Shown here piece after piece: positions 33,285-36,154 of a DNA stretch of 62,547 nucleotides. The notes under the pieces are model-generated. The model made no database searches. It had not been told where the DNA came from and saw only the letters and a list, made by a program, of their open reading frames with translations. Position numbers and translations under genes: made by a program. Source of the stretch: Deltaproteobacteria bacterium (GTDB taxonomy: Bacteria > Desulfobacterota > Binatia > UBA9968); NCBI GenBank assembly GCA_030688735.1, contig JAUYJC010000602.1:1-62547 (forward strand). The letters run 5' to 3'. Each line of letters begins with the position of its first letter. Position 1 is the stretch's first letter.

Positions 33285-33838
33285 CTTTTTCCTTCGGTCA
33301 GCTCTTTGATCAAATTGCGCGCGGCCGGACCATGCCACTCCGCCGGTCCCCAAGCGCGCGCCAGCCCCTCTCCCTTGGCTCCGATGAGATAGGTCGTCGG
33401 CAGACCCCAGGCGCCGTACAAGAGGCCCACCTCACCGTCGGGATCGAGGCCGATGGGATAAGTCAACTTAAGCTCCTTCACGAAGTTGATGGCGTCTTGC
33501 TTGCGGTCTTTGATAGCGACGGCCAGCACGACGAAATTTTTGTCCTTAAACTCCTGATACAAGCGATCCATCGCCGGCATCTCTTCACGGCAGGGAACGC
33601 ACCAGCTCGCCCAGAAATTGAGAAAGACAAGCTTCCCGCGAAAGTCTTTTAAAGAAATTTTCTTTCCCTCGGGCGTCGCCACACTGAAATCGGGGGTCGG
33701 GGAATTCTCCTTCATGGGCTCCAGATTGCGAATAACCTTATAATTGACCTTGGAAGACTGCGCCAAGACAGTCGTCCAAGATCCCAAGACGAGAAACCAC
33801 GAAAGGGAAAATACCAAGGGCCGAAAAATGATTCGCAT
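33281..33838 (-). CDS. TlpA/ResA-family thiol-disulfide reductase
   Basis: LNFWASWCVPCREEMP, GLPTTY, N-terminal signal or anchor. Confidence 0.9.
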   Translation of the reverse strand: MRIIFRPLVFSLSWFLVLGSWTTVLAQSSKVNYKVIRNLEPMKENSPTPDFSVATPEGKKISLKDFRGKLVFLNFWASWCVPCREEMPAMDRLYQEFKDKNFVVLAVAIKDRKQDAINFVKELKLTYPIGLDPDGEVGLLYGAWGLPTTYLIGAKGEGLARAWGPAEWHGPAARNLIKELTEGKR

Positions 33839-34114
33839 AATCCTCACTGTCGCATACTTTAACGAACTGGATGGGTGGGCGCAACAGCAGCTATCCGATC
33901 GATTCGGCGGCGACGAAAAGAACACGCGGGGCAATGGCAGGGGAAACGTTTTTTAGACTTCAATTATAAGCGGCTGGAGCGCATGCCGCTCGCGTCATCG
34001 AACGCGAATGTGCCGGATCAGTCACGCGCTGCTACTTCGCTGCGCCGGTGTATTGCCGTCAGTCAAGAACTGTCCGGCTCCAGCCGCGCGAGGCTTATAG
34101 AAGATTCGATCCGT

Positions 34115-34154
34115 AAAAAACAGAACCCTCCGGGTTGTACTGCCGGAGGGTCTG
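34115..34154 (-). terminator. Rho-independent terminator
   Basis: Minus strand CAGACCCTCCGG-loop-CCGGAGGGTTCTG followed by T6. Confidence 0.8.
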
Positions 34155-34239
34155 TCAAATAGGAAGCCAGAACGGCTGCCTGATCGCCTGAGATTAGGGA
34201 GGGTTTAACTTACCACCGCAACCTCACATCAGAAAACTA

Positions 34240-34287
34240 CTACTTTTTTTTGGTTTTTTTCTTAGCGGCTTTTTTCTTAGCGGCCAT
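34240..34287 (-). CDS. 15-aa Lys-rich micropeptide MAAKKKAAKKKTKKK
   Basis: TAAGGAGGTG Shine-Dalgarno directly upstream, ATG 34287, double stop TAG TAG, own promoter and terminator. Confidence 0.7.
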   Translation of the reverse strand: MAAKKKAAKKKTKKK

Positions 34288-34400
34288 AGACACCTCCTTA
34301 TAGATTTAAAGGGTGGGTTTTAGCTTCGGAGAAGGGTATGAAATCGACTCAGGCGGATAGAAGTGAATACGAAAACCCTCCCATAACTTGTAGCTGACCC

Positions 34401-34430
34401 ACTATAGCGACACAAGAGATTGTATGTCAA
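34401..34430 (-). promoter_or_regulatory. Sigma70-type promoter for the micropeptide unit
   Basis: TTGACA (34430-34425), 18-bp spacer, TATAGT (34406-34401), with AT-rich upstream sequence. Confidence 0.7.
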
Positions 34431-34569
34431 GAAAAAAATGGCATTTTAGAATATTTTTTTGACGCCACTGAAAAAGATTAGACGCTCCCCAGAGAGTCGC
34501 GGGAACATGCGATCCTTCGTTCCAGCAAACTTTTTGCCCCGCGGGTCGTCACGCAGTTGTCTATCGTCG

Positions 34570-34695
34570 TTTCGGAACACTTAATGATAAACTTATCGGC
34601 GCCCGACTTGATCGCTTCCGCCGCCCGCTCGATGGTGCCATGGGCGGTGATGATGACGGGAAGATCGTCATGGTTCCCGCTAAGGATTTCGCCCC
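34570..34695 (-). pseudogene. Fragment of an NtrC-type response-regulator receiver domain
   Basis: Translates as DDLPVIITAHGTIERAAEAIKSGADKFIIK; the N-terminal acidic pocket and the output domain are missing. Confidence 0.65.
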
Positions 34696-34905
34696 ACAGG
34701 CGTAGTGGCAGGCGCCATGGGCTTGCCCGTGGGGCTCCACATGCTTTTTTTGCGACCTAACGAAGCATCGCCGGGCGCAGCAGTCATACATGTCACGGCT
34801 CAGAGGAGCGATTCTAAGAACGCGATCGCTAGCGAGCCGCCGCCACGATACGTCCGGATACCACGAAACCGCCCGCGCCGACTCATGCCACTCGCGCTCA
34901 AAACA

Positions 34906-34935
34906 TTGACAAGCTTATCACCTGCTGCCTATATT
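34906..34935 (+). promoter_or_regulatory. Candidate sigma70 promoter
   Basis: TTGACA-18 bp-TATATT. Confidence 0.45.
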
Positions 34936-35260
34936 CTGCGCCGTGACAAGTCTTTGTGGAAAAAGGAAGCTGAGCGCGATTGTTCAAGCGGTCTTCTCGA
35001 AACGCTAACGGGACCCTATAACGCGATCGTGACAAAAAAGCGGCTCAGCCAGGTCGGCGCGTAGTTTGTGGTGCGCATCAAGCTCGGCAAGTTCGGTGGC
35101 CTTTACGGGAGTACGCGCGACTTTGATTCGAAAGCCTTCGCTTTCTATCAAACCAAAACCGGGAGCACCCCAAGGCCAAGAACGTGACACGCAGTGATTC
35201 AGCGACCTGATTTTTTCATCATAGAATTCAATCCGGTGGTCAGACAATGACGGGAGTTAT

Positions 35261-36154
35261 ATGACCAATCCAACAGTCGGTTTCATCGGCCTCGGCATCA
35301 TGGGCAAGCCCATGGCGCGTAATCTCATGAAGACGGGCTACTCTCTCGTCATCCACAACCGCAGCCGCGCGGCGGTGGATGAGTTGAGCAAGGAAGGCGC
35401 CGAGGTCGCGGGTAGCGGGCAGGAAGTCGCTTCACGAAGCGATATCGTTATCACTATGCTACCCGACTCACCGGACGTCGAGCTGGTTTGCGCCGGTGAT
35501 CGAGGCGTTTTCGCCGGGGTAAAGTCGGGAGGCTTGCTGATCGATATGTCGAGCATTTCGCCCGTGGTCGCGCGCAAATTGGCGGCAACGGCAAAAACGC
35601 TCGGCTGCGACATGCTCGACGCGCCGGTGAGCGGCGGCGAAGCGGGCGCCATCGGCGCCACGCTCTCGATCATGATCGGCGGCGCCGCTACGGCGGTGGA
35701 GCGGGCAATGCCGATCTTTCAGGCGTTGGGGAAAAACATCGTCCACGTCGGCGACGCCGGCGCCGGGCAGGTGACCAAGGCCGCCAACCAGATGGTAGTC
35801 GGAACCACCATCGCGATCGTTGGCGAAGCGTTGGTGTTGGCAGCTAAAGCCGGCGTCGATCCTGCCAAAGTGAGGCAAGCGTTGCTCGGCGGCTTCGCTC
35901 AGTCGAAAATTCTCGAAGCGCATGGGCAAAAGATGCTGGACCGCAATTTCAAACCCGGCTTTCGCATCCGCCTGCACGAGAAAGATATGCAGATCGCCCT
36001 GGCGACGGGGAGCGAATACGGCGTGCCGTTAATGGTTACAGGCATTGTGGGGCAAATGATGACCGCGATGAAAGGCATGGGCAACGGCGACCTCGATCAC
36101 TCAGGGTTGGTGAAGTTCGTTGAGGAATTGGCGAAGAAAGAACTGAGTGCTTAA
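35261..36154 (+). CDS. garR: 2-hydroxy-3-oxopropionate (tartronate semialdehyde) reductase, GarR/GlxR-like
   Basis: FIGLGIMGKPM, LDAPVSGG, GQVTKAANQ, FKPGFRI.LH.KD. Confidence 0.88.
   Translation: MTNPTVGFIGLGIMGKPMARNLMKTGYSLVIHNRSRAAVDELSKEGAEVAGSGQEVASRSDIVITMLPDSPDVELVCAGDRGVFAGVKSGGLLIDMSSISPVVARKLAATAKTLGCDMLDAPVSGGEAGAIGATLSIMIGGAATAVERAMPIFQALGKNIVHVGDAGAGQVTKAANQMVVGTTIAIVGEALVLAAKAGVDPAKVRQALLGGFAQSKILEAHGQKMLDRNFKPGFRIRLHEKDMQIALATGSEYGVPLMVTGIVGQMMTAMKGMGNGDLDHSGLVKFVEELAKKELSA

Follow-up and report, generated by a model that had tools for sequence, protein, structure and literature searches.

What is encoded on the minus strand between positions 34430 and 34115 of the 62,547-nt contig JAUYJC010000602.1 (Deltaproteobacteria bacterium, assembly GCA_030688735.1; the whole of this stretch is referred to here as the window), and why should the two ends of so short a message be complementary to each other? 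A sequence-only reading had proposed a stand-alone unit with its own promoter, Shine-Dalgarno (SD) sequence, open reading frame (ORF) for a poly-lysine peptide and terminator, in which leader and trailer can pair across the ORF. We find that this locus is a real, unannotated mini-gene for an oligolysine peptide, the mRNA of which has ends that are complementary across the ORF, and all of the elements that had been listed can be read in the sequence. The explanation that we favour, and regard as moderately probable when taken as a whole, is that of a strongly expressed gene for a polycationic micro-protein on a 5'-3' clamped mRNA, with roles proposed for the clamp and for an RNA- or ribosome-binding product; that both the gene and the clamp are real is, taken by itself, highly probable.

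A conserved micro-gene for an oligolysine peptide

The anatomy first proposed holds in its coordinates with two small refinements only, and leader, SD, ORF with double TAG stop, trailer and intrinsic terminator were all borne out, with a leader of ~108 nt (counted from the predicted transcription start, an invariant A at 34395), a trailer of 84 nt and an RNA of 281 nt. The principal features, in the order of transcription, are:

34431..34475, minus strand: A/T-rich stretch directly 5' of the -35 hexamer, presumably UP-element-like (78% A+T, 47 promoters)
34401..34430, minus strand: sigma-70-type promoter, TTGACA, 18 nt, TATAGT (promoter scan 11/12)
34382-34373, minus strand: box A GGGAGGGTTT (SD-like), 5' strand of A/A', perfect complement of A'
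34355-34348, minus strand: box B CGCCTGAG, 5' strand of B/B', perfect complement of B'
34300-34291, minus strand: SD TAAGGAGGTG, 10 nt (AAGGAGG invariant in 46, then 142 sequences)
34237..34287, minus strand: ORF MAAKKKAAKKKTKKK, 15 codons followed by TAG TAG (ORF 34287-34243; ATG 34287-34285; TAG TAG 34242-34237), with coding constraint
34206-34197, minus strand: box A' AAACCCTCCC (anti-SD-like), 3' strand of A/A' (CCTCCTT in common with the 16S 3' end of the relative G025)
34192-34185, minus strand: box B' CTCAGGCG, 3' strand of B/B' (pairing over 142 sequences)
34115..34154, minus strand: intrinsic terminator, stem 34154-34121 and T-run 34120-34115 (G+C-rich stem, covariation)

Coding statistics were taken from the 79 loci with an intact ORF, which comprise 49 distinct DNA versions. 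Among the 79 loci the ORF is 12–19 codons long, and differences inside it amount to whole codons only. The 49 distinct ORFs encode a total of 744 residues (K 493, A 182, M 49, R 9, T 8, V 2 and P 1), of which 66% are lysine, giving peptides with a charge (K+R) of 8–13 and a mode of 11. Lysine is written as AAG (279) or AAA (214), so that G within Lys codons stands solely at the third position; Ala is encoded by each of its four codons, which vary at the third position, codons for Asn (AAY), Glu (GAR) and Gln (CAR) are absent from all 49 versions, and the stop is TAA in 41 and TAG in 8. The restriction of Lys codons to AAA and AAG, the synonymous variation of Ala and the whole-codon length changes indicate that the ORF does code, and that it is under coding selection. 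The AAA share of Lys codons, 43% in the ORFs, matches the 44.9% of the genome, and thus nothing points to rare or slippery codons being selected; long A-runs are broken by AAG in relatives. For Ala the micro-ORF uses GCC, GCA and GCT, with GCG found in 10 of 182 cases, although GCG is the commonest Ala codon in the long ORFs of the genome. At the start of the ORF there is also a small conserved hairpin (34293-34279, minus strand), in which the nucleotides between SD and start codon pair with codons 2–3 and the AU of the AUG lies in the loop of 3 nt. Pairing is kept in 98.2% of cells (alignment columns 169–182), with one-sided changes only, and this hairpin may partly explain the fixed Met-Ala-Ala start.

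The hosts of this unit are uncultured soil and groundwater bacteria. Its distribution was followed in two families of one order (f1 and f2), represented by metagenome-assembled genomes (MAGs) labelled Binatia or Deltaproteobacteria, and in a sister family (f3). Using the 316-nt unit as query, BLAST matched 28 of 41 related genomes, each of them once (f1 22/24, f2 5/5, f3 0/11); a search for the pattern of boxes in 401 genomes of the class found it in 45 of 63 genomes of f1, 3 of 4 of f2 and none of 27 of f3, with one copy in nearly every positive genome, and gave 6 matches in 306 genomes of 17 other families, the junctions of which look like chance. One f1 genome (G243) gave no pattern match yet carries a variant unit, and in the f1 genomes G017, G256, G013 and G248 the unit was not found. 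Two unpublished genomes, G006 and G011 (the latter being alignment row L008), are included in both tallies, and no statement depends solely on them. Most of the public records that contain the pattern are MAGs under the names Candidatus Binatia, Deltaproteobacteria or Syntrophobacter(aceae), and a metagenome scan anchored on SD and start listed more than 120 stretches, 108 of them with the ORF. The unit is hence known from 79 fetched loci and at least 142 distinct sequences, and it can be aligned over its whole length across 46, then 142, distinct sequences, with the boxes among the near-invariant columns. With 79 intact ORFs and an AAGGAGG that does not vary, the conservation of unit, ORF and SD that the proposal called for was found. 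The window genome has one such ORF only. Similar micro-ORFs across the phylum were sought with a generic poly-Lys start pattern, which matched 7 of 151 genomes, all of them N-termini of long proteins or other frames; this pattern is narrow and misses the window's own ORF. An anti-correlation of the unit with bS21 gave no signal either, the bS21 gene being present in f1 28/28, f2 5/5 and f3 26/27.

The promoter that had been claimed was confirmed with a near-consensus -35 hexamer (TTGACA, 34430-34425) that has no variation in 46 sequences, an 18-nt spacer and a -10 hexamer (TATAGT, 34406-34401). In 47 distinct promoter copies, the 45 nt 5' of the -35 have a mean A+T content of 78% (the window genome has 56.9% G+C) and include a core, TAAAAT...ATTTTTTTC, that is nearly invariant at 90–100% conservation, whilst the 6 nt after the -10 have a mean G+C content of 60%. 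An A+T-rich upstream region together with a G+C-rich discriminator is the layout of the UP-element promoters, under stringent or growth-rate control, of rRNA and ribosomal-protein genes. We presume that the promoter of the micro-gene is of a kind with those of rRNA and translation genes, and take this as a hint only. A palindrome in the promoter spacer was considered and set aside, as it showed no consistent covariation.

The unit is present in RNA libraries: contigs from four libraries of three studies (riverine, estuary and ice) lie on 34077-34372 with 95–99% identity, one of them being 282 nt long with a depth of 14.7. All of these contigs have an extra AAA codon before the stop, and thus their source is a close relative. 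The parts without contigs in X15, X18 and X20 (33950-34076 and 34373-34600) were not used as evidence on expression or ends. As regards the predicted transcript, these contigs show presence in RNA libraries only, since strand, ends and level are not readable from them.

Crossed complementarity of leader and trailer

The two complementarities A/A' and B/B' had been noticed from the letters of the window; both were confirmed in the sequence and are near-invariant in relatives. Because the order along the RNA is A, B, ORF, A', B', the two helices cross. Judged on the window alone, a 10-nt perfect complement accompanied by a second one of 8 nt arises in 8 of 1000 dinucleotide shuffles, which is suggestive but not decisive, and the case thus rests on conservation: over 142 sequences the bases of A/A' can pair in 92.9% of cells and those of B/B' in 99.3%, with seven of the eight B/B' pairs never varying in 46 sequences. 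The 281-nt RNA as a whole has a folding z-score of -3.67, and none of 200 shuffles folds as well.

Covariation, which had been named as the test of both helices, yields almost nothing because the boxes hardly vary. In case of A/A', no pair has changes on both sides in 46 sequences, and there is no real compensatory change in 142. For B/B' one pair is compensated in 3 of the 142 sequences: the outer pair is CG in 124, UG in 7, UA in 3 and other in 6, and the sole compensatory event is that of L143, L178 and L237, which have A on the 3' side and U on the 5' side. Four other cells with changes on both sides were disregarded, as they stem from an unrelated AT-rich contig (L206).

The comparison of the two helices is aided by two divergent relatives on metagenome contigs (L158 and L238), in which A/A' is lacking whilst B/B' is kept and extended to 10 bp. 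Thus, we take B/B' to be the conserved clamp and A/A' to have been added in the two families only, which suggests that B/B' may be the ancestral form of the clamp; as far as can be judged from the alignments, both box pairs are specific to this lineage (A/A' to the two families, B/B' occurring also in L158 and L238). These same contigs have a promoter of like type, an analogue of hairpin D (described below) and an ORF of 25 residues that also includes Ser, Pro and Gly, which suggests a gradual transition from the peptide to H1-like sequences rich in K and A. The unrelated contig L206, which comes from a different organism, likewise encodes a poly-Lys peptide of 25 residues behind a strong SD (ORF near position 781 of the oriented locus), but has none of the boxes.

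The crossed order had been taken to mean either a pseudoknot or mutually exclusive helices, and whilst order and complementarity stand, the energies allow both helices together or either alone. Nested folding of single sequences gave A/A' in 22 of 46 cases and B/B' in 19 of 46, and the mean energies with one helix forced are -89.7 kcal/mol for the A state and -90.9 kcal/mol for the B state; a crude estimate for the pseudoknot with both helices is -96.7 kcal/mol, compared to an unconstrained nested minimum free energy (MFE) of -93.0 kcal/mol (means). The modelled energies fit a pseudoknot as well as two near-isoenergetic alternative folds.

If the helices are alternatives, the RNA could be a bistable translational switch, in which A/A' and B/B' never coexist. 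Free 30S subunits, a protein or 5' processing would then decide between an open form (A/A', SD free) and a closed one (B/B', with the SD covered by A'). The split of the nested folds and the closeness of the constrained energies would agree with this, as would the RNAalifold consensus, which consists of B/B' plus the SD paired to A' (a pairing possible in 98.7% of cells, with no covariation), and the connection of A' to B' by 4–7 nt only, which by its likely geometry is short for crossing a helix of 9–10 bp. However, the crude double-helix form lies ~4 kcal/mol below the nested MFE, the 20-nt linker between A and B is probably long enough for both helices to form, no ligand or signal is known, and pairing of the SD with A' appears in 1 of 46 single-sequence folds. 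We therefore consider such a switch possible but, on balance, unlikely. Irrespective of this, the anti-SD core of 16S is present in A', as judged from the 16S 3' end of the relative G025, in which the SD of the unit is complementary to 12 nt of its own 16S 3' end: a three-way relation between the SD, the anti-SD-like A' and the SD-like A would account for the near absence of change in both A and A'.

Three further features of leader and trailer belong to the same fold:

34321-34311, minus strand: C-rich box AAAACCCACCC just 5' of the SD, alternative partner of box A (conserved as CCCACC)
34209..34230, minus strand: G/U-rich trailer segment TGTGAGGTTGCGGTGGTAAG (composition and G pattern conserved in 46 and 142 sequences)
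34161..34181, minus strand: hairpin D with a conserved 5-nt loop, GTTCT (covariation, 46 sequences)

The C-rich box is the alternative partner of box A that had been described for the leader, and it pairs with the SD in the MFE fold of the window. The idea of a specific helix joining the C-rich leader to the G/U-rich trailer was rejected: the duplex energies are no better than those of composition-preserving shuffles (mean z of +0.37, with 0 of 46 below -1.64), and the complementarity is one of composition only. Hairpin D has changes on both sides in 7 of 8 pairs with 97% of cells paired, and the terminator stem likewise in 7 of 10 pairs (46 sequences each); both are ordinary helices with good support. 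The GTTCT loop (34169-34173, minus strand) is near-invariant while the stem below it covaries freely, and no partner was found for it. A conserved upstream ORF starting from an AUG or GUG just 5' of box A was also rejected, its frame relative to a TGA in box B being random (0, 1 or 2) and its putative length scattered over 4–64 codons.

Possible roles of the clamp and the peptide

In the explanation that we favour, a strong, rRNA-like promoter would give rise to an mRNA of ~280 nt, the 3' end of which is set by the unit's own terminator, and the product of this single-copy gene would be an oligolysine micro-protein of 12–19 residues with 8–13 positive charges. Leader and trailer would pair across the coding part, with B/B' acting as the conserved clamp and A/A' (SD-like with anti-SD-like) crossing it, so that both helices would enclose SD and ORF in a loop of ~190 nt. 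The clamp would most likely protect the tiny mRNA and set the access of ribosomes to a very strong SD: box A would keep the anti-SD-like A' off the SD, whereas loss or occupation of A would enable A' to close it. The polycationic product would most likely bind RNA or ribosomes in the manner of tiny basic ribosomal proteins, a role that we draw solely from charge, size and promoter type and put forward tentatively.

Searches for a known family gave no assignment. In the whole window Rfam 15 has 0 matches at the gathering score, and in E-value mode the region 33800-34800 has 6 matches only, with E-values of 2.5–4.5 and far below the gathering scores, which upholds the view that no Rfam family is involved; ARAGORN found no tRNA or tmRNA. 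Literature searches, including one on the lineage, brought up no description of a poly-lysine micro-gene in the portions of text that they returned, again in line with the unit being no described family. Mimicry of 16S rRNA was considered and rejected, as local alignment of the G025 unit with its own 16S scored 18 compared to a shuffle mean of 20.9 (23S was not compared), and the sole significant complementarity to 16S in this relative is the SD. Likeness to 13 nt of the 16S 3' domain is seen in the 5' arm of the hairpin D consensus, at positions that covary away in relatives.

Of what has been described, the closest parallel is offered by tiny basic ribosomal proteins, namely bS22, eL41 and mS38 (also bL37 and bTHX), which like the oligolysine peptide are very short, strongly basic and often missed by gene callers. 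As described in PMC10618245 and PMC12123416, bS22 has ~30 residues with 61% Lys+Arg, a highly abundant transcript and a binding site between h44 and h45, and was unannotated in Borrelia until found by translated search, whilst eL41 has 24–25 residues. Unlike bS22 and eL41, with their basic helix of ~24–33 residues, the oligolysine peptide has 12–19 residues, 66% Lys and almost no Arg, and its length and spacing drift between relatives. We do not assign the peptide to the bS22/eL41 group. At the level of the mRNA, rpmI-rplT/L20 is a pseudoknotted ribosomal-protein message under autogenous control. Long-range or pseudoknot pairing around the ribosome-binding site of the mRNA of a small basic protein is likewise found in rpsO/S15 (PMC8470358). 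In contrast to both, where the RNA mimics the rRNA site of the protein and the start codon is involved, the oligolysine unit resembles 16S solely at the SD and has its helices ~60 nt upstream and 31–45 nt downstream of the ORF.

Long-distance pairing of leader and trailer around a very short ORF would also be expected of a type I toxin-like mRNA kept locked by the pairing of its 5' and 3' ends, for which hok and aapA1 are examples, and in outline the AapA1 message (PMC5416894) is locked in the same way. However, the peptide (K, A, M and few R, T, V and P) has no hydrophobic stretch, the unit has one copy per genome in a single syntenic position on the chromosome, and no antisense promoter was noted in the promoter scan; a toxin of this type is extremely improbable.

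A different emphasis arises from the boxes being more invariant than base pairing alone demands. Together with the near-invariant loop of hairpin D on a covarying stem, and with the short contigs of the unit in RNA libraries, this could point to a dual-function or mainly RNA regulator, i.e. an abundant small RNA acting in trans via A', the GTTCT loop or the (AAR)n tract, to which the peptide is secondary; rnTrpL and peTrpL, where leader RNA and leader peptide both act in trans, are described as such a case in PMC6614838 and PMC7298713. Yet the boxes that might serve as seeds can pair with one another in a single molecule, the unit's own genome has no second site for the complement of the joined A'-B', the coding constraint on the ORF is strict, and the divergent relatives retain ORF and B/B' but not A/A'. 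We judge a regulator of this kind to be rather unlikely.

Several results weigh against the clamped micro-protein gene as we favour it. With no compensatory change for A/A', and for B/B' one pair in 3 sequences of ~2 lineages, compensation is scant and the pairing rests mainly on the complementarity of invariant boxes; the invariance of B/B', moreover, is without explanation in the clamp model. Pairing of the SD with A' is seen in just 1 of 46 single-sequence folds. When A/A' is forced and B/B' blocked, the SD mostly pairs to other pyrimidine stretches, with 0–3 of its 7 nt free in 39 of 46 sequences: the SD is thus largely paired, and the micro-gene is perhaps not freely translated. The flanks have no resemblance to 16S, and autoregulation by rRNA mimicry is hence unsupported. 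As for the product, it has almost no arginine (9 of 744 residues) and is, at 12–19 residues, shorter than any described ribosomal protein. The unit is confined to two families, the sister family f3 being without the box pattern in 27 genomes and, in a search of ORF starts in 13 genomes, without a micro-ORF of the MA.KKK type. Finally, the RNA-library contigs give no strand, ends or level, and such libraries may contain DNA.

A wider view would be that encoded oligolysines form an undescribed class of bacterial polycations ("protein polyamine"), made abundant by rRNA-like promoters in order to neutralise ribosomes or RNA and carried on RNA scaffolds that each lineage has for itself: in the present case a 5'-3' pseudoknot of SD and anti-SD mimics that would read free 30S subunits and tune output to ribosome content. 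This stands well short of likely. Genes so short are invisible to annotation, and here an oligolysine gene is under clear selection at the levels of protein and RNA and has a very strong promoter. If the peptide is a ligand of ribosomes or RNA, lineage-specific ribosomal micro-proteins would extend down to 12–19 residues, and a minimal polycation would be under genetic control. The mRNA would be a compact natural case in which crossed helices of leader and trailer, built of SD-like and anti-SD-like boxes, surround a coding sequence, and may serve as a tractable model for 5'-3' communication that tunes translation and stability of very short bacterial messages.

Neighbouring genes and the terminator

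In 55 of 70 loci the unit is followed, on its own strand, by a gene for a TlpA-like thiol-disulfide oxidoreductase, and in 47 by one for CcdA; downstream proteins match AhpC-TSA/Redoxin, DsbD_TM and GTP cyclohydrolase I. This synteny raises the question of a ribosome-dependent attenuator, in which the Lys-codon ORF would be a leader peptide and the terminator would gate read-through into tlpA-ccdA (thiol-disulfide exchange and cytochrome c biogenesis). The layout is that of an attenuator, with an ORF containing a run of one type of codon, a terminator behind it and, in the same orientation, a downstream operon, as in trpL (rnTrpL/peTrpL) and in the polycysteine short ORFs described for mycobacteria (10.1101/834739), and two of the RNA-library contigs extend 20–40 nt beyond the T-run. 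Unlike these attenuators, the unit has downstream genes that are unrelated to lysine and an ordinary codon use (the AAA share given above). The arms of its terminator covary with each other only, and do so freely, with no conserved competing partner or antiterminator, and past the terminator the sequence is not alignable between relatives. Given the size of the ribosome footprint, A' and B', which begin 31–45 nt past the stop codon, are outside a terminating ribosome; promoter and SD, furthermore, are probably far stronger than a sensor needs. Without a conserved antiterminator and a downstream link to lysine, an attenuator is improbable despite the synteny, and for the same reasons, together with a codon use equal to that of the genome, the suggestion of a lysine or translation sensor made in the sequence-only reading finds little support.

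On the 5' side of the unit, an NtrC-type sigma-54 response regulator is encoded in 29 loci. In the window, the corresponding region (34470-35250, minus strand) has only a short receiver-domain-like remnant of such a regulator and no long ORF, and this gene thus seems to have been decayed or deleted in the window genome. Within the decayed region there is a second promoter-like site on the opposite strand (34906-34935, plus strand; TTGACA, 18 nt, TATATT; 11/12), which is located upstream of a 3-hydroxyisobutyrate-dehydrogenase-like gene at 35261.

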